DNA from: Geotalea daltonii FRC-32
Lineage (GTDB): Bacteria > Desulfobacterota > Desulfuromonadia > Geobacterales > Geobacteraceae
Assembly: GCF_000022265.1 (NCBI RefSeq)
Contig: NC_011979.1
Coordinates: 1,590,001 to 1,622,000, forward strand
Reading direction: 5' to 3'
DNA length: 32,000 nucleotides
Shown here: piece by piece, positions 2,646 to 19,076 of the stretch
Position numbering within the stretch: position 1 is the stretch's first letter
Layout: each line of letters opens with the position of its first letter
Made by a program: the position numbers and the translations under genes
The notes under the pieces: generated by a model
Databases searched by the model: none
What the model was told of the DNA's origin: nothing
What the model saw: the letters and a program-made list of their open reading frames with translations, nothing else

Positions 2646-3257
2646 ATGGGGGCAAACAGGCTGAATATCACCTGGCATGACAGGGTACTGACCAAGGGTG
2701 ACTATCTTAAACGCAATGGGCACCAGCCTTTGGTGTTGTGGTTTACCGGACTTTCAGGGTCAGGCAAATCAACGCTTGCCCATGCCGTTGAAGAAGAGCT
2801 GTTCAGGAAAGGCTGCTATACGTATATACTGGATGGCGACAATATACGCCACGGACTCAACAGCGACCTTGGATTTTCTGAGGCTGACCGGAGGGAGAAC
2901 ATCAGGCGTATCGGGGAAGTTGCCAAGCTTTTTGTTGATGCCGGCATTATAGTTCTGGCAGCATTTATTTCTCCTTACCGGGAAGACCGGGAGAGGGTTC
3001 GGGCACTTTTCGAACCTGCTGAATTTATCGAGGTATTTGTCAATTGCGACCTTGCTGTATGTGAAAGCCGCGATCCGAAAGGGCTTTATCGCAAGGCACG
3101 TTCAGGAGAGTTGAAGCAGTTCACCGGGATCGACAGCCCATATGAAGTGCCTTTTAGCCCCGAGCTGGTTGTCAATACTGCATGCAGTACGGTGAAAAGC
3201 GGTGTCCAGTCGGTGCTTGCATTCGTTAGGGACCGGGGACTGATAAACGGTGATTAG
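2646..3257 (+). CDS. cysC: Adenylylsulfate (APS) kinase
   Basis: AGGAG 6-7 nt upstream of the ATG. Canonical motifs [71 protein letters not shown]. The stop codon TAG (3255-3257) lies inside heptamer array A. Confidence 0.95.
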
Positions 3258-3353
3258 TGATTGGTGATTGGTGAACTCCGAACTTCGAACTTCGAACTTC
3301 GAACCTCGAACCTCGAACCTCGAACTTCGAACGTAAAACGTAGAACCTCGAAT
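3249..3353 (+). repeat. Heptanucleotide tandem array A (15 units in a single 7-nt phase)
   Basis: Read directly: GGTGATT AGTGATT GGTGATT GGTGAAC TCCGAAC TTCGAACx3 CTCGAACx3 TTCGAAC GTAAAAC GTAGAAC CTCGAAT. It starts in the last two codons of cysC and ends 19 nt before the cysD ATG. Confidence 0.95.
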
Positions 3354-3372
3354 TAGCTTACAGGGGTTGAAG

Positions 3373-4170
3373 ATGACGCATCTGGAAGAACTTGAAAATA
3401 AATCTATTTATATATTGCGCGAAGCATACAAGAATTTCGACAATCTCTGTATGCTCTGGTCCATTGGCAAGGATTCGACGGTGATGCTCTGGCTGGTGAG
3501 AAAGGCATTCTTCGGTCACTGTCCGATCCCGCTGGTGCACATCGATACCTCATATAAAATCAAGGAGATGATTGCCTATCGCGATCAATTGGCCGAGGAG
3601 TGGGGGCTGACCCTGGTGGTGGGGCAAAACAAGGATGCTCTGGAAAAAGGCATGAACCCTGCGCTGGGGCGTATGGAATGTTGCACTGCCTTGAAGACTG
3701 AGGGGCTACGACGCACCCTTGCCGATAAAAAATACAATGGAGTCATCGTCGGAGTACGTTCCGACGAAGAGGGTACCAGGGCAAAGGAGCGTTATTTTTC
3801 CCCCAGGGACAAGAACAACGACTGGGACTTCAGGGAGCAGCCCCCCGAGTTGTGGGACCAGTTCAAGACCCGCTTCGAGCCCGGAACCCATGTCCGTATC
3901 CACCCCCTCCTGGATTGGACCGAGATCAATATCTGGGAATATATAAAAAAGGAAAATATTCCGGTGATTCCACTGTATTTCGACCAGGGTAGCGGCAGTC
4001 GCTATCGCAGCCTTGGTTGTGCCCCCTGCACCGGCGCCATCCAGTCCACAGCGAAAACTGTCGATCAAATTATCGAAGAGCTGCGCAATACCAAGGTTGC
4101 AGAGCGTTCCGGGCGCGCCCAGGACGCCGATCGCGGCATGGAAAAATTGCGCAAGGATGGGTACATGTAG
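3373..4170 (+). CDS. cysD: Sulfate adenylyltransferase subunit 2 (PAPS reductase-fold ATP pyrophosphatase)
   Basis: [22 protein letters not shown]..., SIGKDS PP-loop motif, C-terminal [18 protein letters not shown], all typical of CysD. ATG 3373 is preferred over the TTG at 3367 given by the ORF track. Confidence 0.95.
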
Positions 4171-4174
4171 AGGC

Positions 4175-4202
4175 GGTGATTGGTGATTGGTGATCGGTGG
4201 AA
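4175..4202 (+). repeat. Heptanucleotide array B (GGTGATT GGTGATT GGTGATC GGTGGAA)
   Basis: Starts 4 nt after the cysD stop with the junction AGGCGGTGATTGGTGATT and ends 2 nt before the ATG of the four-helix-bundle gene. Confidence 0.9.
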
Positions 4203-4204
4203 GT

Positions 4205-4585
4205 ATGTCTGGGGATCGGCCTAAAGCTAGAAGTCATAAAGACCTTCAGGTGTGGCAGCGAGCAATGTCTTTGGTGGTGTCCCTTTATGAATTGCTCAGG
4301 TCTTTTCCTGCCGATGAACGCTTCGGCTTGGTTGACCAGATCAAGCGTTCGGCTATCTCCATCCCTTCGAATATTGCTGAAGGGGCTGCACGACAGACCT
4401 CAAGAGAATACATTCAATTTCTGTATATCGCTGCCGAGTCAGCGGCAGAGCTTGACACGCAGCTTATACTTGCCCAGAGGCTTGGTTTTTCCACAGAGAT
4501 CGAAACTCAACTGGAAGAATTGCAGATTGTCCGCAAGCAGCTGAACGTAATGATCACAACACTGCGAGCAAACCATGAAAAGTGA
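4205..4585 (+). CDS. Four-helix-bundle protein (23S rRNA intervening-sequence protein family; Avd-like)
   Basis: [85 protein letters not shown] is the hallmark sequence of this family. ATG 4205 is preferred because the upstream extension (4187) only reads through the repeat. Confidence 0.9.
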
Positions 4586-6434
4586 AAAATCACCAGGCAC
4601 CATTCACCAATCACCAACGTCCAATCACGAATCACGACGAATTACGAATCACCAATCACGAATCACCAATCACCAATTTTTACAAGTGGTTTTCGTCGGC
4701 CATGTGGACCATGGCAAATCTACCCTGCTCGGCCGCATTTACGCCGACACCGATTCCCTTCCCGTCGGCCAATTGGAAAAGGTACGGGCAATTTGCGAGC
4801 AGCAGGGAAAGACATTCGAATATGCCTTTCTTTTCGATGCCTTTCTTGAAGAGCAAGAGCAGGGAATCACCATTGACACTGCCCGCACATTTTTCAACTG
4901 GGGCAACAGGCACTACATAATCATCGATGCCCCAGGCCACAAAGAATTCCTCAAGAACATGATATCCGGTGCAGCAAGGGCGGAGGCCGCAGTTCTTATC
5001 ATCGATGCAGCCGAAGGGGTTGCGGAGCAGTCGAAACGTCACGGTTACATGCTGAGTTTGCTGGGGATCAGGCAGATAGCCGTAGTCGTAAACAAGATGG
5101 ATCTCGTAAATCATGATCAAAAAGTTTTTGAAGCAATAGTTACCGAATACTCAGCCTTCCTTAAAGAGCTCGGTGTCACACCGCGTCAATTCGTTCCTGC
5201 CAGCGCCAGAAACGGAGATAACGTGGTCACGGGCAGTGATGCCATGCCCTGGTATGACGGCCCTACCGTTTTGGAATCTCTCGGCCGTTTCGAAAAACTG
5301 CCCAGTGGAGAAGAATTGCCGTTGCGTTTTCCGGTGCAGGACGTCTATAAATTCGATGCCCGCCGGATCATTGCCGGCCGGGTCGCTGCAGGTATGTTGA
5401 AGGTCGGCGACAGTCTGGTCTTTTCCCCTTCCAACAAGACGGCGGTGATCAAAACCATCGAGGCTTTCAATGTTGCCCATCTGCCTCTTTCTGCCGGAGT
5501 CGGCAAATCTACCGGCTTCACTCTGGACGAACAGATTTTTGTCGAACGTGGCGAGGTAGCATCGCTGAAGGAATCCTTGCCGGAGGTAACCGACCTCTTC
5601 CGCGCCAATCTCTTCTGGATGGGCAAAAATCCCATGGTCGGCAATCGTCCCTATCTGCTTCGCCTGGCAACGAAGGAAGTGGAAATGGAGCTGGCCGAAA
5701 TCCATCGCATCATCGATGCCGGCAGCCTTGACCCGGTAATGGCCAGGGAGCAGATAGAAAAGAATGACGTCGCCGAAGTCACCATAAGAACTAAAAAGCC
5801 TCTGGCTCTGGATTGTTTTTGCGACTGCGACATCACCGGGCGTTTCGTCGTTGTGGATGGCTATGATGTTTGCGGTGGGGGCATCGTCACCCAGGTACTG
5901 GACAACGACCAGGAGACCTTTCGCCGGGAGGCCAGGCAGCGCGATATTGCCTGGCGCCGCGGAGAAGTGCAACTTGGCGAGCGGGTGCAACGGAACGGGC
6001 ACAACCCGGGCATCATCCTCTTTACGGGAGAAAGCGGCACCGGCAAGGCCCGCCTTGCACGTCATCTGGAGCGCCGGCTTTTCGATGGCGGGCGTCAGGT
6101 GTATCTCCTTGATGGGAAGAACCTGCTTCTCGGGCTTGGCTCCGACGTCACCGAACAAGACAAGGAGGAGATGGTCCGGCGGTTCGGCGAAGTTGCCCAG
6201 ATTCTGTTGCGAGCCGGGCAGATTGTGGTATCGACCACCAATACCTTTGCCCAGGCAGATCATCAGATCATCAGCACCCTTGTTTATCCCCACCAGGTAA
6301 TTTCCGTGCACATGTCCTTTGCCAGGGGGGCTGTACCGGAAAAAACCGATCTCCGCTTTCTCGAATCGGACGACCTGAAAAAGGCCGCCAAACAGATTGT
6401 GGAGAAGATGGAAGAGTTGGGGATCCTGCTGTAA
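4575..6434 (+). CDS. cysN: Sulfate adenylyltransferase subunit 1 (GTPase) fused to a degenerate APS-kinase-like C-terminal domain
   Basis: [15 protein letters not shown] (G1), DAPGH, NKMD motifs and EF-Tu-like domains II/III. The C-terminal ~150 aa resemble CysC but with altered motifs. Start is uncertain: ATG 4575 translates array C as a 35-aa extension, and the only alternative is GTG 4686, just 4 codons before GHVDHGKS. Confidence 0.9.
4588..4674 (-). repeat. Heptanucleotide array C, reverse orientation (AATCACC-type, 12 units plus a 3-nt ACG insertion)
   Basis: AATCACC AGGCACC ATTCACC AATCACC AACGTCC AATCACG AATCACG [ACG] AATTACG AATCACC AATCACG AATCACC AATCACC. This is the reverse complement of the GGTGATT family and lies between the four-helix-bundle stop (4585) and the conserved CysN G-domain. 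Confidence 0.95.
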
Positions 6435-6438
6435 AGGC

Positions 6439-6589
6439 GGTGATTGGTGATACTTCGGTGATTGGTGATTGGTGAAGGGTGAAGGGTGAAGGGTGAAGGG
6501 TGAAGGGTGAAGGGTGAAGGGTGAAGGGTGAAGGGCACGACCTCGAACATGGAACATAGAACGTAGAACATAGAACATAGAACATAGAA
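6439..6589 (+). repeat. Heptanucleotide array D (composite)
   Basis: GGTGATT GGTGATA [CTTC] GGTGATT GGTGATT (GGTGAAG)x9 GGCACGA CCTCGAA CATGGAA CATAGAA CGTAGAA (CATAGAA)x3. The 19 units 6457-6589 share one phase. It begins 4 nt after the cysN TAA with AGGCGGTGATTGGTGAT and ends 19 nt before the wzm ATG. Confidence 0.95.
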
Positions 6590-6608
6590 CGGATTTTGCG
6601 GGGTAAAG

Positions 6609-7421
6609 ATGCAAGCATTAAGGATGTTCAGTAACTTCATTGCCGAATTGTGGTCGCGTCGGCACATGATCATCGAGCTGGCAAAACGGGATTTCAAAAC
6701 CAAGTACCTCGGCTCTTACCTGGGGATGCTCTGGGCTTTTGTTCACCCGACAGTGTATATAATTATTCTCTGGTTCGTTTTTCAGGTGGGCTTCAAGTCA
6801 CAGCCCCAGGCCAATTATCCGTTCGTCCTCTGGATGATGTGCGGCATCGTTCCCTGGTTCTTCTTCAGTGAATGCCTGCAGAGCGCTACCATGTCCATCA
6901 TCGACAACAGCTTTCTTCTTAAAAAGATGGCTTTCAGCATCGGCATGCTTCCCATCGTCAAAATTCTCTCCGCGCTGGTAATCCACTTTTTCTTTATCCT
7001 GGTCGTTTTCGTCATGATCCTTCTCTATGGGCTGCCGATTTCCCTTCACAGCCTGCAGGTTTTTTACTACCTGTTCGCCGCCATAACACTGCTCCTTGGC
7101 CTGTCCTGGCTTACATCCTCACTGGTGGTTTTCCTCAGGGATGTGGGGCAATTGGTTGCCATGGCTTTGCAGTTCGCCTTCTGGGTGACCCCCATCTTCT
7201 GGTCGGCAAAGATCCTCCCCGATAAGTACGCTAACCTGGTCAAGCTCAACCCTGTCTACTACCTGGTGGAAGGCTACCGGGAAAGCTTCATCTACAAGAC
7301 CTGGTTTTGGGAGAGCCACTATGTGCTGACCCTCTATTTTTGGGCTGTTACCGGCATTATTTTTGTGCTGGGTGCGGTCGTGTTCAGGAGGCTGCGGCCA
7401 CATTTCGCGGATGTTTTGTAG
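6609..7421 (+). CDS. wzm: ABC-2 type polysaccharide export permease
   Basis: N-terminal ELWSRRHMIIELAKRDFKTKYLGSYLGMLWAFVHP signature and six predicted hydrophobic helices, typical of Wzm/KpsM/TagG. Confidence 0.9.
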   Translation: MQALRMFSNFIAELWSRRHMIIELAKRDFKTKYLGSYLGMLWAFVHPTVYIIILWFVFQVGFKSQPQANYPFVLWMMCGIVPWFFFSECLQSATMSIIDNSFLLKKMAFSIGMLPIVKILSALVIHFFFILVVFVMILLYGLPISLHSLQVFYYLFAAITLLLGLSWLTSSLVVFLRDVGQLVAMALQFAFWVTPIFWSAKILPDKYANLVKLNPVYYLVEGYRESFIYKTWFWESHYVLTLYFWAVTGIIFVLGAVVFRRLRPHFADVL

Positions 7422-7423
7422 AC

Positions 7424-7497
7424 GGTGATTGGTGATTAGACGGTGATTGGTGATTGGTGATTGGTGATTGGTGGATGGTGGATGGTGGATGGTGGAG
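7424..7497 (+). repeat. Heptanucleotide array E
   Basis: GGTGATTx2 [AGAC] GGTGATTx4 GGTGGATx3 GGTGGAG. The first 36 nt, including the wzm TAG, form an 18-nt tandem duplication TAGACGGTGATTGGTGAT x2 (7419-7454). Confidence 0.95.
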
Positions 7498-7500
7498 CGC

Positions 7501-7547
7501 TTGACTGATGTCTTACAAAAGAATACAGTGTAAGCACATGTCTTGCA
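7501..7547 (+). promoter_or_regulatory. Putative sigma70-type promoter with palindromic operator for the toxin-antitoxin pair
   Basis: TTGACT (7501-7506), 17 nt, TACAGT (7524-7529). Inverted repeat CTTACA...TGTAAG straddles the -10. Direct repeat ATGTCTT(A/G)CA at 7508-7517 and 7538-7547. GGAGG lies 6 nt before ATG 7564. Confidence 0.5.
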
Positions 7548-7563
7548 TTTTCCGGAGGTAGCC

Positions 7564-7821
7564 ATGCTGAAAGCAGCTAATATAACTGTTCGTATCAAAC
7601 CAACAACCAAGATGCGCATCGATGCCCTGGCGCAGGCTACCAAGCGCTCTAAGTCCTATGTCGTCGAGGAGGCGTTGGAACAGTACCTGGAGGTAAACGA
7701 GTGGCAGGTTAAAGGGATCGAGGCCGCCTTACATGAGGCCGACAGTTCCGATGCTGAATGGGTTGATCATAAAGATGTCCTGGCAAAGTGGGAGGCCAAG
7801 TTTGCGGATAAAGTGGCTTAG
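7564..7821 (+). CDS. Ribbon-helix-helix (CopG/ParD-like) antitoxin
   Basis: MLKAANITVRIKPTTKMRIDALAQATKRSKSYVVEEALEQYL is an RHH fold signature. It overlaps the downstream toxin gene by 20 nt. Confidence 0.8.
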   Translation: MLKAANITVRIKPTTKMRIDALAQATKRSKSYVVEEALEQYLEVNEWQVKGIEAALHEADSSDAEWVDHKDVLAKWEAKFADKVA

Positions 7822-8086
7822 ACAGGCGCTTCTTGATCTCGATGAAGTAGAAAGCTATATTGCCAGGGACAATCCAGTTGCAGCTATAGGTGTGGTAACT
7901 AAAATAGTCAAAATGGTTTCTGTTCTTGAGAAGCAGCCGGGACTTGGTCGTCCTGGTCGCGTCCCAGGCTCCAAGGAACTTGTTATTCCCGATACTCCTT
8001 TCATTGTTCCTTACCGGGTGAAGGATGGCTTGGTGCAGGTATTACGGGTCTATCATACATCAAGAAGGTGGCCAGATAACATTTAG
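7802..8086 (+). CDS. RelE/ParE-family toxin
   Basis: RQALLDLDEVESYIARDNPVAAIGVVTKI...GRPGRVPGSKELVIPDTPFIVPYRV..GLVQVLRVYHTSRRWP is a typical ParE layout. TTG 7802 with GGAGG 6 nt upstream is preferred over ATG 7733, which would overlap the antitoxin by 89 nt. Confidence 0.75.
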   Translation: MRIKWLRQALLDLDEVESYIARDNPVAAIGVVTKIVKMVSVLEKQPGLGRPGRVPGSKELVIPDTPFIVPYRVKDGLVQVLRVYHTSRRWPDNI

Positions 8087-8227
8087 CAGGTTGTTGAAAA
8101 ACTATTACAGGGTCGCTCTGCTGCGTTGCCGCTCGCTCGGAGACTCAACGTACATAGGGTACGCTTCGTCTCCTCGCTCGCTTGAGCCTTGCATAGCGGC
8201 CTCCTCGTGACGTTTTTAAACAACCTG
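8087..8227. repeat. 141-bp MITE-like / structured repeat element with terminal inverted repeats (full copy)
   Basis: Termini CAGGTTGTTGAAAAAC (8087-8102) and GTTTTTAAACAACCTG (8212-8227) are complementary at 15 of 16 positions. Inner hairpins GGAGAC...GTCTCC and CGTAC-ATAGG-GTACG. Its left arm recurs at 23097-23153. Confidence 0.65.
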
Positions 8228-8254
8228 TTAGTTGTTGCAGCGGGTTTTATTGTT

Positions 8255-8280
8255 GAACCACCGGTTTCCGTCTACGCTCC
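8255..8280. repeat. Short direct repeat, copy 1 (GAACCACCGGTTTCCGTCTACGCTCC)
   Basis: Shares ACCACCG..TTCCGTCT..CGCTC with 8371-8400. Confidence 0.5.
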
Positions 8281-8370
8281 AGTTAATGGGCAAAAGGCAA
8301 CCTGCTATTTAACGGATGAATTTTTATTTTCGCGATATCAACGTTAATGTATTTCTACTTTCAGCCTGTA

Positions 8371-8400
8371 GACCACCGTCTTCCGTCTTCCGCTCTTCCG
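8371..8400. repeat. Short direct repeat, copy 2, containing a mini-array CCGTCTT CCGTCTT CCGCTCTT
   Basis: GACCACCGTCTTCCGTCTTCCGCTCTTCCG read directly. Confidence 0.5.
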
Positions 8401-8691
8401 TTTGATTTTTTGGTCTTTATCTTGCATCAATACCCTCGTCTTGTGTGTATTTGTCACTTTAATGTGAATAAATATTTTAAAAAACCTTTACCTTTTTTAA
8501 TTCTTGCTTTATTTGTAGGGAAGTAGCTTCTCATTCATGATGCAACGCAAGGTGTGCGCGAGGAAAATGATCCTGAAAAGGGGAAAAATGATCCCCGCCA
8601 AATAGAGAAATAACTGGTTAAATAGCACGCAGCATATTCGAATCAGAGACATACCATAAGTCAAAAGACACATAAACAGGAGGCAAAGAAC

Positions 8692-9414
8692 ATGAAAAGT
8701 TTACGGCAGAAAATGTTGGCAATGGCGGCAGTTGTTGCAGTTTCGGGGCTGATGATGGCTTCGGTGGCAGGAGCGGCTCCTAAGTTAATTGTAAAGGATA
8801 ATGCAACACCGACCCCAAATGATGTATTTACAGTAGCAGACGATGGACAAATAACAGCAAAAGATTTGACCTTTAAACCTGCTACAAAGAAATTCGGCTT
8901 TGGCACCAGCAACCCTCAAACATCCCTGCATTTGGTTGAGTTGGCTTCACCATTTGATAGAGGCCTAACCATTGGGCAACATGACGCGGGTACTGCAGCG
9001 GCTGTTATTAACATCAAGAAGTCCTCTGGGACTGATGCTTCCCCTGGGCTGCCTGCATCAGGATCAAACATTGCGGCTTTTCATGCACAAGTATATGACG
9101 GTAACACAACAGTTGCAGGGGCCAACGGTTGGTCTGCAAACGCTAGTTTTTTCTTCACTGCCGAACCGGGAACATATGCAGCTGAGTACATTCCAGTTGC
9201 CATTAGATTTGACACAGGTGTTGCACAGGCACAAAAGAAAGAGCGCCTGAGAATTACTAGTGATGGTCGGCTGCGTATATCAAACCAACCAACCGCACCC
9301 GCGAATAATGCTATCTGCACAGTTGGTGATATGGTACTTGACGCAACAAATGGATTCCTGTATCTTTGTACTGCTACTAACTCTTGGAAAAGAACAAGCT
9401 TTTCCACATATTAG
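8692..9414 (+). CDS. Secreted protein of unknown function (tail-fibre/lectin-like motifs, C-terminal Cys pair)
   Basis: AGGAGG 8 nt upstream. Signal peptide MKSLRQKMLAMAAVVAVSGLMMASVAGAAP. Motifs FGFGTSNPQTSLHLV and ERLRITSDGRLRISN. C-terminal CTVGDMVLDATNGFLYLCTATNSW. Confidence 0.75.
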   Translation: MKSLRQKMLAMAAVVAVSGLMMASVAGAAPKLIVKDNATPTPNDVFTVADDGQITAKDLTFKPATKKFGFGTSNPQTSLHLVELASPFDRGLTIGQHDAGTAAAVINIKKSSGTDASPGLPASGSNIAAFHAQVYDGNTTVAGANGWSANASFFFTAEPGTYAAEYIPVAIRFDTGVAQAQKKERLRITSDGRLRISNQPTAPANNAICTVGDMVLDATNGFLYLCTATNSWKRTSFSTY

Positions 9415-9464
9415 TCACTATAGAGATTGATTGTTTAATAGACTGAAATGGGGACTGAAATGGG

Positions 9465-9495
9465 GGCGATTACAGCATTGTAATCGCCTCTTTTC
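9465..9495 (+). terminator. Rho-independent terminator after the secreted-protein gene
   Basis: Perfect 10-bp stem GGCGATTACA / TGTAATCGCC with loop GCAT, followed by TCTTTTC. It is preceded by a 12-nt tandem duplication GACTGAAATGGG x2 (9441-9464). Confidence 0.7.
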
Positions 9496-9524
9496 ATAAT
9501 CAGATTTAAATTTATTTTGGCGGA

Positions 9525-10544
9525 ATGATCATGAAGCTGGTGCAAATGGTTCAGAAGGTAAAAAATATTTGTCTTAACAATGTAGAAAAAACAAACACTA
9601 TGGCGCAAAGACATTATAAATTTGCATATATAGAACCTGTCAGAGCATGTCCGGTAAAGTGTATTCCTTGTCCTGTTGGCCGAAACGTACTTTTTAAGCA
9701 TCCTGTGGTGGTCTTGGATCTGGAGATTGCTCGCAGGTGTTTTGCAAAGCTCAGGGGACAATTCGGTATAGATACATTAATAATGGGGAATTGGGGGGAG
9801 CCATTACTTCATCCGCAATTCCCTGAACTCGTGCAGCTGGCTAGGAGTTCAGGGTTTAGACAGATAGAAGTATCAACTTCACTTTCAGTAAAATGCGATA
9901 TGGCTAGTATTATAGGTGCAGGGCTAGACTGTATCCAGATTTCTATGTCAGGAATAACAAAAGACGTTTACAATCAAAGTCACAGATTTGGAGACTTTGA
10001 CCTTATATTTAAGAATCTTGAATCTTTAGTCAGTCTTAATAAAGTAAAAACTACCCCGGCTGGCATTGTTATTCGCTGGCATCGTTATCACCATAATGAA
10101 GCTCAGTTTGAGGCAGTAAGCAACTTTTGTAAAGATCTTGGCTTAGGTCTATTGCCATACTTCGGCCATCTCGGTAGTATAGAGGCTATGCGGGACTGGT
10201 CCAATCATCAACTTGAAGAACCTCTTAAATCTTTTGTTTATAACTCTGTCTTTACTGAATTTATAGAAAAAGCATGTATTCTAAATAAAGGGGCCACAAA
10301 TTGTAAGCAGTCGGAGTTTGTGGTTTTAGATGCCGACGGTTCGTTGGTATTTTGTTGCTCTTGCTATAAAAACTACAAAACGAATGCTCCCTTTCTAGCG
10401 ATGAGTGCAAGCGAGATAGAATCTTTTAAATCCCCCAATTCAACTATTTGCAGTCTTTGTCTTGGTAGCGGCTGGTCTGGGTATATGAATAGACCAAAGA
10501 CACTGGAGGAGTATGATGGGTGCATTTCTTTGGGCGCAACATAG
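9525..10544 (+). CDS. Radical SAM enzyme with SPASM/twitch-like C-terminal Cys cluster
   Basis: CPVKCIPC (CxxxCxxC), GNWGEPLLHP (GGE-type SAM motif), C-terminal CKQSEFVVLDADGSLVFCCSC (C-x11-G-x4-C) and CSLC. Start is uncertain (9525, 9531 or ATG 9600, which lies 12 codons before the Cys motif). Confidence 0.85.
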   Translation: MIMKLVQMVQKVKNICLNNVEKTNTMAQRHYKFAYIEPVRACPVKCIPCPVGRNVLFKHPVVVLDLEIARRCFAKLRGQFGIDTLIMGNWGEPLLHPQFPELVQLARSSGFRQIEVSTSLSVKCDMASIIGAGLDCIQISMSGITKDVYNQSHRFGDFDLIFKNLESLVSLNKVKTTPAGIVIRWHRYHHNEAQFEAVSNFCKDLGLGLLPYFGHLGSIEAMRDWSNHQLEEPLKSFVYNSVFTEFIEKACILNKGATNCKQSEFVVLDADGSLVFCCSCYKNYKTNAPFLAMSASEIESFKSPNSTICSLCLGSGWSGYMNRPKTLEEYDGCISLGAT

Positions 10545-10705
10545 GGGTCTATGAGTATGTATGCGTTAGAGGCAAAAGAAGGACCTACCACTGCAGATCG
10601 TCGCACACGGCGTCCGTGCTCTAAATTAACAATTTCAATATCTATAAGGAACCACTCAAAATAATTAATAAGCCTAAGGCGGGAGCAGCCCAGGAAATTC
10701 TAATT

Positions 10706-12037
10706 ATGAGTCACGATAGGCAAATCGCAATTGCAGTAAAAAATCTAACCAAAGTCTACAAGCTTTACGATACCCCATTGGACCGAGTTAAAGAGTCGAT
10801 AAATCCATTTAGCCGGAAGTATCACAAAGATTTCTATGCGCTCAATGATGTAAGCTTTGACATTGAAAAGGGATCCACTATTGGTATTATCGGCAAAAAT
10901 GGATCAGGTAAATCAACTCTTCTCAAAACAATAACAGGAGTGCTGACACCATCAAGTGGTAGTGTTACTGTCAATGGAAAAATTTCTGCTCTGCTTGAGC
11001 TAGGCGCAGGGTTTAATACTGAGTTGACAGGTATTGATAACATTTACTTTAATGGGACCCTCCAAGGGTACACTAAAGATGAGATAGATTTAAAGTTAGA
11101 TGAAATTCTATCTTTTGCGGATATTGGAGAGTTTGTGTTTCAACCTGTCAAAAGCTATTCAAGCGGCATGTTTGTTCGGTTGGCTTTTGGAGTGGCAATC
11201 AATGTTGATCCTGATATATTAATCGTTGATGAAGCTCTGGCAGTAGGGGATATAAAATTTCAGCGCAAGTGTTTTTCCAAGATCGAAGAATTTCATAAGA
11301 AAGGTAAAACTATAATTTTTGTTTCGCACGGTTTAGATACAATCAACCTTCTCTGCGACACTGCATATCTGCTTGATGGAGGCAGATTGATTGAAGAAGG
11401 CCTGCCCAAGAATGTTACTAAAGTATATCAAAAAATGATGTTAGGCGAAGACACTATTAGTTCTACAACGGACGTATGTTTGGGAAAAGAGTTAGAATTC
11501 CTATACGACCTACCGTCTGAGCAGGATTGTGAGTTTTATACAAATGAATACGACACCCAGAAATTAAACGAATTAGTTAAAGATAAAATCCAAAAGTGGG
11601 ACGGCCATAAAAAGGCAGAAATCATAGATTGTGGTATTTGGGATGCGCTGGGTAATAAAGTCACTCTTCTGGAATGTGGTGCACATTACACTTTTTATTC
11701 GAAGATACTTATTCATGTAGATTTAGAAGTCATACATGTTGGTTTCCCTATCAAAAATGTTAAAGGCCTAATGCTTTTTGGTGTAAACAGCGAGATACAA
11801 AAAGTTGCAGTTACGCCAAAAACAAAGGGAAATGTTGTTGAGGGTCGTGTCGACGTTACGATGTGGCTGGCGCCAGGCAATTATTTTCTCTCGTTTAGAG
11901 CTGCTACAAGACAGGAAGTTTTCGACGAGTTGAATGATCAAGTACACTTTGTTGTAACAGGCGGCAACCATACCCTCAATGCTCTTTCCGTAGTGAATTT
12001 GGAGCCAAAGGTGACCCTCAGAACTTTGGCTTTCTAA
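10706..12037 (+). CDS. wzt: Polysaccharide export ABC transporter ATP-binding protein with C-terminal carbohydrate-binding (Wzt_C-like) domain
   Basis: Walker A GKNGSGKST, signature SYSSGM, Walker B ILIVDE, H-loop VSHG. An extra ~170-aa beta-rich C-terminal domain (AEIIDCGIWDALGNKV...GNYFLSFRAA...VHFVV) matches terminus-recognising Wzt proteins. Confidence 0.9.
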   Translation: MSHDRQIAIAVKNLTKVYKLYDTPLDRVKESINPFSRKYHKDFYALNDVSFDIEKGSTIGIIGKNGSGKSTLLKTITGVLTPSSGSVTVNGKISALLELGAGFNTELTGIDNIYFNGTLQGYTKDEIDLKLDEILSFADIGEFVFQPVKSYSSGMFVRLAFGVAINVDPDILIVDEALAVGDIKFQRKCFSKIEEFHKKGKTIIFVSHGLDTINLLCDTAYLLDGGRLIEEGLPKNVTKVYQKMMLGEDTISSTTDVCLGKELEFLYDLPSEQDCEFYTNEYDTQKLNELVKDKIQKWDGHKKAEIIDCGIWDALGNKVTLLECGAHYTFYSKILIHVDLEVIHVGFPIKNVKGLMLFGVNSEIQKVAVTPKTKGNVVEGRVDVTMWLAPGNYFLSFRAATRQEVFDELNDQVHFVVTGGNHTLNALSVVNLEPKVTLRTLAF

Positions 12038-12129
12038 GGATGACAGCTGAAGGCTCTGTTCAAATTTAATGTTGTTTTCGGGGTTTTTTAAAAATAATAA
12101 AACAACCCTCAGGAGTGTCCGCCTTACTT

Positions 12130-12936
12130 ATGGGATTAAAATTATCGTTATTCAGACCAGAATCAAAGCCAATTGAAAAATCCTTCGTATTTATAACAGG
12201 AACGCCTCGTTCAGGCACATCAATGCTAACAAAAGTTATTGATGCGCATCCAGATGCTGCGATCTTGATGGAAAATCTCTTTGGAAATAGACGTAGGCAC
12301 TGGGAGCGTGCAAGCTTCTGGAATGAACCTCAATTATTACAGGCAGAGATTGAAAAAGTATATTCTCCTTTCAAACAGCAACTGATTGGCAACAAGGTTT
12401 GTACTCCTGATGTTTGGTCAGCTGAGGACATAGTAACCTTTTGCCAGTTTTTTTCAGATTCCAAATTCATCTTCATTGTCAGAGATCCAATAGAAGTAGC
12501 ACTTTCAAGATTCAGGCGGGAAAATTATGATAAAGAATTTAATTCTTTCGCAAGACAGCATATGCAATTAGACTTCAGAAGCAGATCTTTTACCTATACA
12601 TCTTCATGGGCAGGCAGCATCCAAAATTATTGGTTTCTCAAAGAGCTTTTTCCAACTAAAACACTACTTATTTATTACGATGACTTTTGCAACACGTTTG
12701 AAGATCATTTACATACATTAGTTGATTTCCTTGATCTCCCTTTCTCAGAAAAAATGCTTAAATGGCATGAACTACCACATCATGACTCAGAAGGGGTTTT
12801 ACAGGTTAACTTAAAATACGATGATGAGCCGGTTTTTGTTAACAAAAGCAAGAGTTCGTCCCTTACTGACGAACTAATGTTGGCAATGGCCACTATTGAA
12901 CCATTGTATAATCGGTGGAAGAAGAGATCTCTCTGA
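12130..12936 (+). CDS. PAPS-dependent sulfotransferase family protein
   Basis: 5-prime-PSB loop FITGTPRSGTSML and 3-prime-PB segment FIVRDPIEVALSRF. The ORF track starts at GTG 12115, which overlaps the AGGAG, so ATG 12130 is preferred. Confidence 0.8.
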   Translation: MGLKLSLFRPESKPIEKSFVFITGTPRSGTSMLTKVIDAHPDAAILMENLFGNRRRHWERASFWNEPQLLQAEIEKVYSPFKQQLIGNKVCTPDVWSAEDIVTFCQFFSDSKFIFIVRDPIEVALSRFRRENYDKEFNSFARQHMQLDFRSRSFTYTSSWAGSIQNYWFLKELFPTKTLLIYYDDFCNTFEDHLHTLVDFLDLPFSEKMLKWHELPHHDSEGVLQVNLKYDDEPVFVNKSKSSSLTDELMLAMATIEPLYNRWKKRSL

Positions 12937-12983
12937 AATAGTATGTTTTCTGTAGGGCTAAGTTCTAAAAAAAGGATGGAAAT

Positions 12984-13355
12984 ATGAGTACAAAGCAACT
13001 CTCTAGTGTTAAGATCATGTCCTTTGGATTTAAGTATGGCAGCCCAAACGCAAATTACTATTTTGATGTGGGCTTTATAAAAAATCCAGCAAGGGATCCG
13101 AAATGGAATTTTTTTTCTACGCCTGATGAAGAAATGCGCAACTTCGTGCTGAGCCAGAAACCTGTTGTTGAATTTTTAAAGTATATAATCCCCCTCATAA
13201 AAATACTGGCACCTCTTGATCAAGCCCAAGTTTTCGCTTTTGGTTGTAATTCTGGTCGCCATCGCAGTTATATTCTAGTTGAGGAGATTGCTCGCCAGCT
13301 AAAAGAGTGCGGGGTGCCCGCTAAAATCGTACACCGTGAGGATGATTTACAGTGA
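12984..13355 (+). CDS. Stand-alone RapZ (YhbJ/YvcJ) C-terminal-domain-like protein
   Basis: SFGFKYGSPNANYYFDVGFIKNPARDPK and AFGCNSGRHRSYILVEEIARQL match, from memory, the RapZ C-terminal segments [29 protein letters not shown] and AIGCTGGKHRSVYIAEQLA. Only 12 residues precede the first motif, so the P-loop N-domain is absent. Confidence 0.75.
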   Translation: MSTKQLSSVKIMSFGFKYGSPNANYYFDVGFIKNPARDPKWNFFSTPDEEMRNFVLSQKPVVEFLKYIIPLIKILAPLDQAQVFAFGCNSGRHRSYILVEEIARQLKECGVPAKIVHREDDLQ

Positions 13356-14287
13356 GCTCTAATAATGAACGTATTTGGTGCCCTAGCGGCGAACTTAGAC
13401 CCTTAAGTTTTGCACAGGCCCCGAAAAAAGACCTTGCATTTATCGTCGTAAACCGAAATCGTCGCGATTTGACTGACTATCTCTGTCACCAGATTCTCAA
13501 TTTTACGAACACTACGGATCTAACTTATGATCTGTTTGTAGTTGATATCGGTTCGGAACCTGCCCAACGTAGCCCTTTTACCACCATTGAATACGAAGAT
13601 AGCGACTTTCGAGGCAAGTGTTATGCACACAATGTAGGGGTGCGTCAAGCGGCATTAACCGCTGATTACCGTTATTATTGGGCTATGATGAATGACCTAC
13701 GTTTTGATGGGCAGCCAGATGCTATGATGCGGATGATAGAATTAATGGACAGTAATCCAGAAATTGGAATTTTAAGCCCTACAAATATTGGGGAAGGTAA
13801 GGAATATCCTGGTGCTGATCCACAACCAGGACACGTATTTAGAAAGGTGCCGGTGTGCGATTATCTTGCACTTATGTTGCGTGGCCAAGTCTTGCATGAG
13901 GTAGGATTTCTTAACCCCGAATTTCGCTATTGCTGGGGAGCGATACATGAACTGTCATATAAGGTATACCGTACAGGTAAATGGTCTATTGCGTATTGTG
14001 ATACTGTTCATTATGAACATTTAGGTGGCACTACCTATGGTAAGACAAAAAATGTTGTTAGCCGCGACGAATACACATTGAATGCAAAAAGGTTCGCAGC
14101 TTCTTACTTTGTGAAGCAATACGGGCGGGACTGGGATGAAAAATTTACAGATGCATTGCCTACAGATGTCACCTTAAAAGAAACGTACTCACGTCATCGA
14201 ACCTACTGGGAGGAATCTTTAGTTTCTGAAAAAAATTGCCGTAATTCCTTTTTTCATAATATCTGGCGAAAAATCAAAAATGGCTGA
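13352..14287 (+). CDS. GT2-like glycosyltransferase (divergent)
   Basis: GTG start overlaps the upstream TGA (GTGA). LAFIVVNRNRRDLTDYL...LFVVDIGSEP...AHNVGVRQAA...MMNDLRF follows the GT-A fold order, but the DxD is atypical. Confidence 0.6.
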   Translation: MSSNNERIWCPSGELRPLSFAQAPKKDLAFIVVNRNRRDLTDYLCHQILNFTNTTDLTYDLFVVDIGSEPAQRSPFTTIEYEDSDFRGKCYAHNVGVRQAALTADYRYYWAMMNDLRFDGQPDAMMRMIELMDSNPEIGILSPTNIGEGKEYPGADPQPGHVFRKVPVCDYLALMLRGQVLHEVGFLNPEFRYCWGAIHELSYKVYRTGKWSIAYCDTVHYEHLGGTTYGKTKNVVSRDEYTLNAKRFAASYFVKQYGRDWDEKFTDALPTDVTLKETYSRHRTYWEESLVSEKNCRNSFFHNIWRKIKNG

Positions 14288-15061
14288 ATGGGCATTATGA
14301 AGAATTGTATTATTTTGGGATCAGGAAGAAGTGGCACAAGTATGGTTGCCGGTACTTTGGCGAAATCAGGCTACTTTATGGGGGATAACCTTTATCCAGC
14401 CCGAGAAAGCAATCCTAAGGGGTTTTTCGAAGACCCATTTATAAATGGTATAAACGAGGAAATTTTAGAAAGGATGTGCTTTGGCGCCGTAGAGAGCATC
14501 AAAAGGAAATTAAGCGGTATACGATTGACAGATGGGCAGAGATGGCTAGAGAAGATACCACTGGATGCTAGACTTCCTTCGTCTATGGCACTAACAGAGA
14601 AAATACTAACGGCTGTAAATAAGGCACCTTTCTGCTATAAAGATCCGCGGTTTAGCTATACCCTACCGATTTGGCGTCCTTACTTACAAAACACGGTCTT
14701 CATTTGCGTATTTCGAGAACCTACTGTCACAGCACAAAGCATTATCAAAGAGTGCAGCGCGATGGAATATTTAAAGTCAGTTAAAATGAGTTTTAAGTAC
14801 GCCTTGGAAATTTGGTTCCATATTTACAACCACATACTTACGACTCATATTCATGAGGGAGAGTGGCTGTTTCTGCATTATGATCAGGTGCTGAGTTTTG
14901 ATGGAGCTTCGAGAATAGAGGCGATTGCAGAATCGGCCACAGACAAATCGTTTCCAGAAGAACAATTTAAACGTTCTTCTTCAACTTTAGAATGCCCAAG
15001 TAAACATCGAAAAATGTATGCCCAGTTGTGTGAATTAGCAAGATATCAGCCATCTTATTAG
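14288..15061 (+). CDS. PAPS-dependent sulfotransferase family protein
   Basis: ILGSGRSGTSMVAG (5-prime-PSB loop) and VFREPTVTAQSIIKE (3-prime-PB). The ATG directly abuts the upstream TGA. Confidence 0.8.
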   Translation: MGIMKNCIILGSGRSGTSMVAGTLAKSGYFMGDNLYPARESNPKGFFEDPFINGINEEILERMCFGAVESIKRKLSGIRLTDGQRWLEKIPLDARLPSSMALTEKILTAVNKAPFCYKDPRFSYTLPIWRPYLQNTVFICVFREPTVTAQSIIKECSAMEYLKSVKMSFKYALEIWFHIYNHILTTHIHEGEWLFLHYDQVLSFDGASRIEAIAESATDKSFPEEQFKRSSSTLECPSKHRKMYAQLCELARYQPSY

Positions 15062-15085
15062 GTACATGGTCATGGCAGGAGGATT

Positions 15086-16123
15086 ATGGATGGTGTAAGC
15101 CTGGTAATTTGTTGCCACAATAGCTCTAAGAAACTTGAAGAGACCTTGAAGCATGTGAGCCGGCAAAAATTCTCCAGTGAGGTTCCCTGGGAATTGATTA
15201 TTGTTGATAATGCATCCACTGATTTAACTTCTGAGATGGCAACTGCTATAACTCAAGGTGCGACGTATAACTGTAGGATAGTCACTGAGGGAAAAGTAGG
15301 TCTTAAGAATGCAAGACTGAAAGGAATAGTTGAGTCTAAATACGATTTAATAAGCTTTATTGATGATGATAATTGGATTTGTGAATCATGGATTGAAAAT
15401 GTACACAACATAATGTCTAATCGTCCTGAGATTGGTGCCTGTGGTGGAATAGGATTACCCAAATTTGAAACTTCTCCACCTGATTGGTTCGAGCTTCAGC
15501 AAGGTAGTTATGCTGTTGGCCTACAAGCTGAATCTACCGGTTATATACCTGATTCGAGAGGGTACCTATGGGGTGCCGGATTAACTATCAGGAGGTCAGC
15601 TATGGATGAAATTATACAGAACGGATTTTGTTTTTCCCTAACAGGGCGTCATGGCGCAAGCATTTCCTCGGGAGAGGATACGGAGTTGTGTTTAGCATTG
15701 AGGTGCCTTGGTTGGCGTCTTTGGTATGATGAAAGCCTTTCCTATTATCATTATCTTCCTTCCAGCCGACTCAGTTGGTCTTACCTGAAAAGGTTGCAAT
15801 TCAGTTTTGGTGCATCTAGTGTTGTGTTGAATGCCTATAATGAATGCCTGCTGTATAACCCTGAAACCATCCAAAATCATAAAAAGCTGTGGATTGCAGA
15901 CTCTATGGCATTGACAAAGTCTTTCTTTGCTAGAGACGGACACCTTTTTTCTTTTATCTGCGCCAAAGAAGGTTCGTCAGATGCATTATTTGGATACTAT
16001 AGATTGGGCAGGCTTTTACAAATTATAAGCTTACGTCATAAATATGATGAACTCAAAAATAGCATTTTTGCTTTCTGGCAGAGAGCAAGCTCAATAAGAA
16101 CTTATAGAACCGGGTCAGGTTAA
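15086..16123 (+). CDS. GT2 glycosyltransferase
   Basis: AGGAGG RBS. VSLVICCHNSSKKLEETLKHVSRQ...ELIIVDNASTD...ISFIDDDN. Confidence 0.85.
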   Translation: MDGVSLVICCHNSSKKLEETLKHVSRQKFSSEVPWELIIVDNASTDLTSEMATAITQGATYNCRIVTEGKVGLKNARLKGIVESKYDLISFIDDDNWICESWIENVHNIMSNRPEIGACGGIGLPKFETSPPDWFELQQGSYAVGLQAESTGYIPDSRGYLWGAGLTIRRSAMDEIIQNGFCFSLTGRHGASISSGEDTELCLALRCLGWRLWYDESLSYYHYLPSSRLSWSYLKRLQFSFGASSVVLNAYNECLLYNPETIQNHKKLWIADSMALTKSFFARDGHLFSFICAKEGSSDALFGYYRLGRLLQIISLRHKYDELKNSIFAFWQRASSIRTYRTGSG

Positions 16124-16234
16124 TGTAGGAATACGATGACATTGTACTCGTAGTCTCAGTTTAGCTTTTAGTGCATCCAACCATATAACTGCAGCTGCAA
16201 TCGGCGTTAAGAAATAATATCGAAAGGATCGGGA

Positions 16235-17224
16235 ATGGCTATCAATTTGATAGTCCAATACTATAGGTGTTTGGACGATGTAAGACAGCAGGAAATCGAT
16301 TCCTGTCTACAAAATAATCTATTAAATGAATATCTAGATGCAATCCATCTACTGACAGAGATCCTTTATGATTTTCAAAACTTCAAGAACAGTGAAAAAA
16401 TTGTCCAGTCTGTAGTCGGTAAAAGACTGTCATACAAAAAAGCTTTTGAATATGCAACGTCACTCGGTGGGGACCATATCTGGATACTAGCTAATGCCGA
16501 CATCTATTTCGATGACAATTTGAAATATCTGAATGGATTTCCCTGCAATGTGGTTTATTCCTTGACTCGACACGAAGTGCAGCCTGATGGCTCGGTGAAA
16601 TTCATGGATGAGCAGTATGCTCATGCAAGTCAGGATGCTTGGATATTCAGCAGCCAGTTGGACTTTACGGGTATGTACACAGAGTTTAATCTAGGTGTAC
16701 CAGGTTGCGATAACAGGATCGCATACGAGTTTTTACGCACAGGCCACACCGTAGTAAATCCTTCAAGGATCGTTAAATGTTTCCACCTGGATTTAACAAA
16801 AGAGATAGACATCGAAAAAAGGACTGCCGCCTACATCACTCTCCACACGAATGAGAATATTCTCGATGGTAAGGTCGCCCCACCCCCTTATCAGTTTTTC
16901 ATATATCCAACTGATCATCTTGGGGTGGAACAGATTGATGTATATAAGGATATGCAAAAGAAATTAATCGACCTCACCCATGCATACCAGGATTTAGACC
17001 GATATACTGCTCACAATGCTGAATTGGAAAGTAGAGTTGTCAATCTCAATCGAGAATTGGAAGAATGTCGCGAAATGATTTTAGAGCGAAACAATCAGAT
17101 AGCCGAGAGGGATAACCAAATAGCGCGAAAGGATGCCCAAATAGCGGAAATATTAAACTCTGTAACATGGAAAATGATGACACCTTTACGAAAATGCCTC
17201 GATTTCATTAAAAGACATCACTAG
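16235..17224 (+). CDS. Protein with an unassigned transferase-like N-domain and a C-terminal coiled coil ending in a W-K/R-x-x-T/A-P-L/I-R motif
   Basis: N-domain QDAWIFSS...LGVPGCDNRIAYEF...VVNPS...FHLD. C-terminus ELESRVVNLNRELEECREMILERNNQIAERDNQIARKDAQIAEILNSVTWKMMTPLRK (heptad-like). Confidence 0.6.
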   Translation: MAINLIVQYYRCLDDVRQQEIDSCLQNNLLNEYLDAIHLLTEILYDFQNFKNSEKIVQSVVGKRLSYKKAFEYATSLGGDHIWILANADIYFDDNLKYLNGFPCNVVYSLTRHEVQPDGSVKFMDEQYAHASQDAWIFSSQLDFTGMYTEFNLGVPGCDNRIAYEFLRTGHTVVNPSRIVKCFHLDLTKEIDIEKRTAAYITLHTNENILDGKVAPPPYQFFIYPTDHLGVEQIDVYKDMQKKLIDLTHAYQDLDRYTAHNAELESRVVNLNRELEECREMILERNNQIAERDNQIARKDAQIAEILNSVTWKMMTPLRKCLDFIKRHH

Positions 17225-17251
17225 TCTATACAAAGAACGGACTTTCTAGCC

Positions 17252-18160: not shown

Positions 18161-18196
18161 TCTGTTGTTGCATATTAATAATTAGGTGAAGTTCCA

Positions 18197-19042: not shown

Positions 19043-19076
19043 CACTATAACTCTGATCAAAATTAGGCACTATTAA

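Follow-up and report, generated by a model that had tools for sequence, protein, structure and literature searches.

In a 32,000-nt stretch of the Geotalea (formerly Geobacter) daltonii FRC-32 genome (NC_011979.1, positions 1,590,001–1,622,000 of the forward strand; hereafter the window, numbered from its first letter), tandem arrays of seven-nucleotide units occupy the gene junctions of an operon for surface-glycan sulfation and export. These arrays are, as far as their sequence and position tell, a lineage-specific case of the known bacterial class of heptanucleotide long simple sequence repeats (SSRs). The reading that we favour, at a probability of roughly 60%, is that repeats seeded at junctions resembling ribosome-binding sites have been shaped by slippage and by homogenisation between loci, and that two of them, arrays B and C, form the stem of a cassette similar to an intervening sequence (IVS) around a small gene of the 23S_rRNA_IVP family (PF05635; the IVP gene). 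Heptanucleotide repeats have been on record since 1990 (short tandemly repeated repetitive sequences, STRR), and in 2007 heptanucleotides reportedly emerged as the dominant long SSR in many bacteria (the Mrazek class). Their function and origin are a long-standing puzzle, to which this locus offers three leads: arrays seem to invade overlapping gene junctions from a head like a ribosome-binding site, their units seem to evolve in concert across unlinked loci, and they appear to form complementary arms round PF05635 genes.

We searched the window for tandem repeats with Tandem Repeats Finder (TRF) and a lag-autocorrelation scan covering periods 4–12. The scan returned ten runs at period 7, 510 nt in all, and none in the window at any other of these periods; period 7 was likewise dominant throughout the DNA that could be read, about 32 kb here and about 75 kb of relatives. 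TRF placed period-7 repeats at 3249–3352, 4175–4199, 4588–4677, 6457–6590, 7424–7496, 31130–31219 and 31986–32000, with a further short call at 8376–8401. All seven arrays listed in the initial annotation (A to G) were recovered; it had passed over the short eighth array (8376–8401, reverse strand, CCGTCTT on the + strand), which is kept in G. toluenoxydans (L126 13572-13603), together with the IVP gene at 4205–4585 and an 18-nt duplication at 7419–7455. Also upheld were its statements that different unit types are joined without loss of the 7-nt register, through 15 units in 3249–3353 and 19 in 6457–6589, and that the hybrid units GGTGAAC and TCCGAAC bridge GGTGATT and TTCGAAC.

Array A fills the gap between cysC and cysD (3249–3353, + strand; TRF, sequence reading and lag scan), where its 15 in-register units run from GGTGATT/AGTGATT ×3 through the two hybrids to (T/C)TCGAAC ×8, GTAAAAC, GTAGAAC and CTCGAAT. 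Array B with its head AGGC (4171–4202, +) consists of GGTGATT ×2, GGTGATC and GGTGGAAG, and array C (4588–4677, − strand) reads on the + strand as AATCACC-type units, the reverse complement of GGTGATT. Array D, again with a head AGGC (6435–6589, +), begins with GGTGATT GGTGATA and a CTTC spacer and continues with the 19 in-register units: GGTGATT ×2, GGTGAAG ×9, GGCACGA and then units of the CCTCGAA, CATGGAA and CATAGAA types. Array E (7419–7497, +) opens with the exact 18-nt duplication TAGACGGTGATTGGTGAT, called by TRF and taking in the wzm stop codon, before GGTGATT ×4, GGTGGAT ×3 and GGTGGAG. Array F (31130–31220, −), inside the gene for a membrane protein with GT-C and TPR (tetratricopeptide repeat) domains, is the reverse complement of a head GAGGCGGTGATT, a six-unit GGTGATT-type module that includes one GGTTATT and one GGTGAAT, a spacer and (Y)TCGAAC ×5. 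Array G (31986–32000, +) shows GGTGATT ×2 before the window end cuts it.

Independent Logan assemblies match the window exactly over 3303–5871 and 6506–7468, stretches that take in array B, the greater part of C and portions of A, D and E, and because of these exact matches we conclude that the arrays are genuine and not an assembly artefact. Logan contigs end inside arrays. The arrays thus break short-read assemblies, and contigs carrying these genes (L001–L004, L125 and most IVP-bearing ones) are mostly 1–3 kb; as a practical consequence, such loci are systematically fragmented in metagenomes.

Open reading frames (ORFs) and Pfam matches supported the gene identities that had been guessed earlier for the array-bearing genes: cysC (adenosine 5'-phosphosulfate kinase; 2646–3257, +; PF01583, E = 4e-71), cysD (sulfate adenylyltransferase subunit 2; 3373–4170, +; PF01507), a cysN/cysC fusion gene (cysN/C; 4575–6434, +; ORF list and Pfam), wzm (ABC-2 type transporter permease; 6609–7421, +; PF01061) and the GT-C/TPR gene (30097–32000, +; ORF and domain evidence), which runs past the window end. 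The exact CysD protein is present in four independent assemblies. Arrays A, B, D, E and G all lie on the coding strand, near or overlapping a stop codon and between co-oriented ORFs. The cysC stop codon TAG (3255–3257) is inside array A, which supplies the last two codons and the stop (GGT GAT TAG), and the stop codons of cysD (TAG), cysN/C (TAA) and wzm (TAG) stand 2–4 nt before arrays B, D and E, whose heads read TAGAGGCGGTGATT, TAAAGGCGGTGATT and TAGACGGTGATT. The GT-C/TPR ORF reads into array G and ends there, so that the array gives its C-terminal residues and probably also its stop codon, as in G. toluenoxydans (...AVIGDW, then stop). For the shared head AGGCGGTGA, allowing one mismatch or none, 14 occurrences were counted where 5.5 would be expected. 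For these five arrays, a start at or just after a stop codon behind a common junction was therefore correctly described from the outset; as evidence for anchoring, the observation stands but is partly forced, since GGTGATT contains TGA in all three frames.

The same property separates forward from reverse arrays. GGTGATT stops each of the three frames, and for that reason forward arrays are confined to gene ends or beyond; its complement AATCACC is open in every frame, cycling through NHQSPIT, so reverse arrays can be absorbed into coding sequence. Forward arrays indeed give the last residues and stops of CysC (..NGD, stop) and of the TPR protein (..AVIGDW, stop, in G. toluenoxydans). Array C on the + strand encodes an N-terminal extension of CysN/C (residues ~5–34) that is exclusive to Geotalea in our comparison, the Geomonas CysN proteins beginning ~10 residues before the GTPase G1 motif (GHVDHGKS). 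Array F is read in frame within a hypervariable loop of the GT-C/TPR protein; the loop carries differing array-type peptides in the orthologues and is short in distant relatives, and loop and C-terminus both vary among orthologues in an array-like manner. In practical terms, some residues of annotated proteins, at the N-terminus, at the C-terminus or in a loop, are encoded by arrays.

Arrays inside genes raise the question of switching. Arrays C (in cysN) and F (in the GT-C/TPR gene) might act as contingency loci, in which a change of 7 nt shifts the frame and so turns sulfation or glycan synthesis on or off; seven is not a multiple of three, the genes are part of a cluster for sulfating and exporting surface glycan, and the arrays are hypermutable. 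We nevertheless judge this explanation highly improbable: all alleles seen are in frame, the assemblies covering array C match the window exactly, and most arrays are intergenic, where frame is irrelevant. Phase variation was also argued against for the class as a whole (Rehm 2015, PMC4692102).

The history of the arrays can be read from relatives. CysN/C is 95% identical in G. toluenoxydans, 90% in Geotalea sp. SG265 and 80% in G. uraniireducens Rf4, and these three species share the gene order cysC, cysD, small ORF, cysN/C, wzm. Every orthologous gap in them holds a period-7 array, and the units differ: GGTGACT, GGTGATG and GGTGAAT in G. toluenoxydans; GGTGGAT ×13 and AGTGAGG ×8 in SG265; and GGTCGGT/GGTCGAT/GGCGGAT, GGGGACT ×10, GGGAACT (about 235 nt) and TGTGAGT ×8 in Rf4. 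The head is kept across species as a stop codon followed by AGGC(G/C)GT, for example TAAAGGCGGTGA, TGAGAGGCGGTCGG and TAAAGGCCGTGAAT. In Geomonas oryzisoli and another relative, cysC, cysD and cysN overlap (ATGA, TGATG) without the small ORF, and no period-7 run was found in 39 kb; one such array-less junction reads TAAAGGCGGGTGAATG, where the head-like sequence is the ribosome-binding spacer of the next gene. Because these array-less relatives have overlapping cysC, cysD and cysN, the Geotalea arrays are insertions into junctions that were once translationally coupled, which accounts for each array filling its gap from the stop codon on.

Growth by slippage is visible at close range. Strain L002, a close relative in which CysD is identical, shows 20 differences from the window; 12 of them fall in the 105-nt array A and are gains and losses of units, compared with 7 in the 1717 nt outside arrays A and B. 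Together with the 18-nt duplication in array E, these differences show that slippage is active at several scales. Polymorphism between relatives, which the initial annotation had raised, was thus found both in strain L002 and among four Geotalea species. Its proposal that the arrays grew in situ and were not inserted independently holds for this local slippage but does not cover the composites shared by arrays A, F and G, which point to copying between loci. The composite (head, G-rich module, RGTGAAC, YYCGAAC) occurs at A, at F in reverse and at G in G. toluenoxydans, where the full array G (L214) is the same composite as array A. In Rf4, the equivalent of array F and an array upstream of the TPR gene both use a GGTCGGT/CGACCAC family behind the head GAGGCGGT. 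Unit families are thus genome-specific yet common to loci ~25 kb apart, in both orientations and in coding and non-coding DNA. From the recurrence of the composite and of genome-specific units at unlinked loci we infer concerted evolution, probably by copying or gene conversion between arrays.

As a separate observation, arrays A and F are near-perfect antisense to each other (predicted RNA duplex −114 kcal/mol against −25 for shuffles). Array F is probably also the reverse complement of array G (window and G. toluenoxydans), and F and G would then bracket the TPR-domain coding segment as B and C bracket the IVP gene.

Arrays B and C, both of which exist as first described, proved to be more than two neighbouring repeats; what had been overlooked is the gene between them and their relation as inverted arms around it. 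That gene (4205–4585, +) encodes a 126-aa four-helix-bundle protein of the 23S_rRNA_IVP family (PF05635, E = 6.5e-35), with further matches to TIGR02436 and to PDB 2GSC (XCC0516; E = 6.5e-26) and a weak match to the retroelement protein Avd. It sits between cysD and cysN in four Geotalea species and is absent in Geomonas. The last unit of array B carries its likely Shine–Dalgarno (SD) site, GGTGGA, and the cysN/C start codon ATG lies 8 nt before its stop codon (in SG265 the two overlap as GTGA), an arrangement kept in four species that has the signature of translational coupling. When 4160–4700 was folded, 4166–4206, which includes the cysD stop codon (UGUAGAGG...), paired with 4642–4685 (...AAUCACCAAUUUUUACAA) in both the minimum-free-energy (MFE) and the centroid structure, enclosing the whole ORF (z = −3.65). 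Arrays B and C are accordingly predicted to be the inverted arms of a stem of ~35 bp round the IVP ORF, both strands of which lie on the + strand. The arm duplex computed with RNAduplex reached −46.6 kcal/mol in the window (shuffles −26.7 ± 3.1), −91.5 in G. toluenoxydans (−50.5 ± 5.3) and −118.2 in Rf4 (−70.6 ± 6.4).

To see how general this arrangement is, we scanned metagenome contigs with an IVP alignment and retained the 80 best loci (L130–L209), scoring as arrays those of period 5–12 within ~150 nt of a gene end and taking other ORFs of the same loci as controls. The loci are diverse, with a median nearest-neighbour identity of 62% and none reaching 90%. An array stood at an end of 73 of the 80 IVP genes compared with 34 of 95 control ORFs (Fisher p = 9e-15), and at both ends of 37 compared with 5 (p = 1.6e-10). 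TRF rows near IVP genes were mostly of period 7 (96), followed by periods 8 (24) and 9 (10). The unit differs from one locus to the next, and upstream and downstream units are usually reverse complements of each other, as in GTGGTGA/TCACCAC, AGGGACT/AGTCCCT, GTTGGGA/CCAACTC and the 9-mer pair CGTGAATGT/ATTCACGAT. Over 67 loci, arms paired better with their own partner (−70.5 kcal/mol) than with mismatched ones (−50.2 kcal/mol; Wilcoxon p = 2e-11), and in 34 of these loci the true pair ranked first of seven. The cassettes mostly lie between co-directional genes, and in 23 of 24 cases the distance from the upstream stop codon to the start of the upstream arm is −21 to +12 nt; 24 of 43 upstream arms have stops in all three frames, and 18 of 44 downstream arms have none. 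Two cassettes with heptamer arms are placed between tRNA-Met(CAT) and tRNA-Glu(CTC) genes (L166 1230-1851; L178 187-907), and a Brevundimonas locus (L067) reads exactly (GGTGATT)n, IVP, (AATCACC)n.

The association is visible, though not remarked on, in published Xanthomonas data. A GGGAATC array lies 6 nt from XCC0517 (bccP) and overlaps the start of XCC0516 (repeat 15 in the supplement of PMC4692102), whose supplementary table gives XCC0516 no description beyond 'conserved' and does not connect it to the IVP family; XCC0516 is the IVP protein that has been crystallised (PDB 2GSC). IVP genes lodged between cas genes were recorded by Zhang et al. 2013, who make no mention of repeats. We found no description of an IVP–array link in the literature outside subscription-only journals. 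The link appears only when the search starts from IVP genes: among the matches listed for GGTGATT, an IVP gene stood close to just 3 of 120. In IVP-bearing contigs arrays number 0.5 per kb, and in the 39 kb of Geomonas there are none; because 34 of 95 ordinary genes in the former have end arrays and Geomonas has none, IVP genes and heptamer arrays may co-occur at the level of the genome. Almost no inverted partners of background arrays were found by a weak method that required exact units.

It is possible, and we advance it tentatively, that heptanucleotide arrays and 23S_rRNA_IVP genes, relatives of Avd, belong to one widespread system whose unit is an IVS-like cassette. Equally tentatively, the inverted arms in such a system would allow a small ORF to reside in rRNA genes and in mRNA or tRNA operons, and the IVP protein might bind, protect or help to generate the arrays. 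If true, this would give a first functional handle on the over-representation of 7-nt repeats in certain bacterial phyla. PF05635 is a very common and uncharacterised family; a functional link would mean that one mechanism unites microsatellite-like repeats with rRNA intervening sequences and with 'hitch-hiker' ORFs embedded in operons.

The unit GGTGATT itself is widespread. Exact (GGTGATT)×3 was found in at least 120 species-representative contigs, and the matches listed span cyanobacteria (with runs in Nostocales), Bacteroidota, Xanthomonadales, Brevundimonas, Planctomycetota, Verrucomicrobiota and Acidobacteriota; many have the hairpin form (GGTGATT)n-loop-(AATCACC)n. Very long perfect arrays reach 33 units in a metagenome-assembled genome of Bdellovibrionales (L043 3477-3707) and 19 in Sphaerospermopsis (L021 43-175). 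Across phyla, a rough count of how GGTGATT arrays are oriented showed no strong sense bias (17 against 14 among co-directional gene pairs), so strict sense orientation is a statement about Geotalea only. A full-text literature search for GGTGATT returned primer matches only.

With hairpin forms common in Xanthomonadales and other phyla and an IVP-filled form in Brevundimonas, the arrays could be copies of a mobile or copy-prone composite, similar to a miniature inverted-repeat transposable element (MITE) and possibly an ORF-less relative of the IVP cassette, that targets stop/SD junctions through microhomology to its AGGCGGTGA head. The common head and module order at A, F (reverse, within a coding sequence) and G would follow, ancestral junctions were array-free (an array-less junction reads AGGCGGGTGA), and in IVP-bearing contigs roughly one ordinary gene in three has an end array. 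We regard such an origin as decidedly unlikely, however, as the arrays show no transposase, target-site duplication or defined 3' end, and their orthologous positions across the genus mean that any spread would be ancient. For array F, the head equally corresponds to conserved R-L codons in reverse complement, making a local seed possible there, and the rarity of IVP genes near GGTGATT loci likewise tells against a shared cassette origin.

The arrays outside the B/C pair (A, D, E and G) look, by folding and composition, like unstructured, C-poor spacers. Against shuffled sequences their folding z scores were −0.39 (A), +1.73 (D) and +1.03 (E), and their 5' modules contain 1–4% C. The window scan found no terminator-like site in arrays or intergenic spacers, all five such sites lying inside coding sequences; with no promoter-like or terminator-like site within any array, we rejected a role as terminators. 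An Rfam search of the whole window returned 0 matches at the gathering score. By regular expression, a G-quadruplex (G4) motif was present only in the GGTGAAG part of array D, (GGGTGAA)n at 6477–6528; four or more tracts of at least three G with short loops were absent from A, B, C, E, F and G, so that 'G-quadruplex repeats' would label one array only and not the family.

The solo forward arrays might still have been selected as cis-acting RNA elements of the operon transcript, whether as strings of SD-like sites that hold or hand on ribosomes over the long gaps between cistrons, as C-poor insulators against Rho or RNases, or, for array D, as a G-quadruplex. GGUGAU can pair with AUCACC at the 3' end of 16S rRNA: head plus first unit reached −15.8 kcal/mol and GGUGAUU alone −9.8, compared with −3.1 for CUCGAAC, all calculated with the conserved textbook 16S tail and not that of this genome. 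The C-poor 5' modules, the looser-than-shuffled folding of D and E, the origin of the IVP ribosome-binding site in the last unit of array B and the presence of an array at every junction in four species despite unit turnover agree with such a role, and (GGGTGAA)n fits the G4 motif, related repeats of which form G4 in vitro (Rehm 2015, PMC4692102). Yet the sister-species units GGGGACT, UGUGAGU and GGUCGAU bind the anti-SD sequence poorly (−5 to −8 kcal/mol), and because they pair so much less well, SD mimicry cannot be a shared property. Nor are the 3' modules (YTCGAAC, ATAGAAC) SD-like; G3 tracts are limited to array D, AGTAACA- or AAATAGA-like units are frequent in the upstream arms of other phyla, which means that SD mimicry is not general, and no regulatory effect was seen by Rehm 2015 (PMC4692102). 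Selection for a role in cis therefore seems to us unlikely.

Slippage and homogenisation from a ribosome-binding-site-like seed would account for the locus as follows. In the Geotalea lineage, long-SSR heptamers would have colonised the junctions of an operon that had once been tightly coupled, each array beginning at the fixed head AGGCGGT(GA) right after a stop codon, a head that resembles the ribosome-binding spacer of an array-less relative. Replication slippage would then lengthen, shorten and change the units, and recombination or copying between loci would homogenise arrays within a genome. Translation would filter placement, leaving forward arrays at or after gene ends and letting reverse arrays be absorbed into the CysN N-terminus and the TPR loop. 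Around the IVP ORF, the predicted B/C stem in the operon transcript is, to judge by analogy with the intervening sequences of 23S rRNA, probably an RNase III processing or insulation device, and may be what lets this ORF sit inside the operon.

Several points weigh against this account. Homogenisation was deduced from a handful of loci and not from whole genomes. Neutral slippage alone leaves unexplained why arrays stand at every operon junction in four species, why heads are identical at unlinked loci and why units are shared within a genome. Arm pairing is weak in SG265 (−46.5 against −36.1 ± 4.7 kcal/mol for shuffles; z about −2). When arms were paired across species, the resulting matrix was not diagonal, since a G-rich arm will pair with any C-rich one, and it was set aside for the test of own against mismatched arms at 67 loci. 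Lastly, the 80 IVP loci are those most like the IVP gene of the window, and may be biased to array-rich lineages.

Beyond array E the sequence changes character. A toxin–antitoxin pair (ribbon-helix-helix antitoxin and ParE toxin; 7543–8086) follows the array directly, and Rf4 has at the same site (L128 18513-18953, 20636-21215) other toxin–antitoxin pairs (HigB/helix-turn-helix, DUF2281/PemK), transposase genes and two further IVP genes; the junction downstream of wzm is an insertion hot spot. After the ParE gene, a non-coding element of ~140 bp (8087–8227) with 16-nt inverted ends, CAGGTTGTTGAAAAAC ... GTTTTTAAACAACCTG, looks MITE-like from its sequence and had no Rfam match. The block from 8200 to 20000 has 35–44% G+C against ~50% in its flanks, carries radical-SAM and other modification genes and, apart from the short array at 8376–8401, no period-7 array; most probably it represents an island of glycan-modification genes gained by lateral transfer.

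The initial annotation saw no described element that these arrays fit, and that view was not borne out, since the positional rules set out by Rehm 2015 (PMC4692102) and MacGregor 2015 (PMC4679880) match them. The Geotalea arrays consist of head-to-tail 7-nt units in three or more copies, and unit number and sequence vary at the same junction (L002; four Geotalea species), as in the long-SSR class. In the account of Rehm 2015, repeats sit between co-oriented ORFs and on the coding strand, no more than 50 bp from a stop codon or across it, with some inverted pairs and with variation among relatives; they are transcribed and form G4 in vitro. The GGGAATC (Xanthomonas) and GGGGA(C/T)T (Nostoc) repeats of that study resemble ours in their tandem 7-nt units and many copies per genome, and Rf4 even has the units GGGGACT and GGGAACT. 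Unlike them, the Geotalea arrays concatenate several unit types in register behind a fixed head, show no preference for four units and are translated when reversed; and as most units (GGTGATT, GGTGGAT, YTCGAAC) lack G3 tracts, G4 formation cannot be a common property.

The TAACTGA repeats of Beggiatoaceae, cyanobacteria and Bacteroidetes share a scattered phyletic spread, possible overlap with gene ends and indels in 7-nt steps, and in them too every frame is stopped in the forward direction, and the reverse can be translated and occurs inside ORFs (MacGregor 2015, PMC4679880). They differ in forming sets of 2–6 units, mostly just upstream of start codons and without SD character, whereas the Geotalea arrays begin at stop codons and are G-rich and composite. 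The STRR of heterocystous cyanobacteria are likewise intergenic period-7 arrays with several unit families per genome, but have other unit sequences and another host phylum, and are not known to have a head at stop codons or a connection with IVP genes; with Geotalea as host and different units, the arrays are not STRR in the strict sense. The heptamers of G. metallireducens (GGACCGG, MTYCTGA; PMC2700814) were rejected as a match on account of their other motifs and fixed four- or five-copy layout. Repetitive extragenic palindromes and their mosaic clusters (REP/BIME) are also high-copy transcribed elements after stop codons of co-directional genes, and some array relatives form hairpins, but a REP is a single imperfect palindrome with a conserved tetranucleotide head and a RAYT transposase, and is not of period 7; a folding palindrome of 20–40 nt was not seen in the solo arrays (z −0.4, +1.7 and +1.0).

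The closest parallel to the B/C cassette is the IVS of 23S rRNA with an IVP ORF, known from Leptospira, Coxiella and bacteria of the candidate phyla radiation (CPR), which has a gene of the same PF05635 family, complementary flanks and a predicted long stem. The PF05635/TIGR02436 ORF and complementary stem flanks recur in our cassettes (67 loci compared). The Geotalea cassette differs in lying in an mRNA operon, between cysD and cysN, and in having tandem heptamer arrays as arms, and so it is not an rRNA IVS proper, which sits in helix 25 or 45 of 23S rRNA and is excised by RNase III; for the cassettes at L166 and L178 the host transcript is a tRNA operon. Measured against these systems, what is new here is the composite, head-anchored form of the arrays, the conservation of array sites with genome-specific turnover of units, the invasion of once-overlapping junctions, and the general bracketing of IVP genes by complementary short-period arrays.

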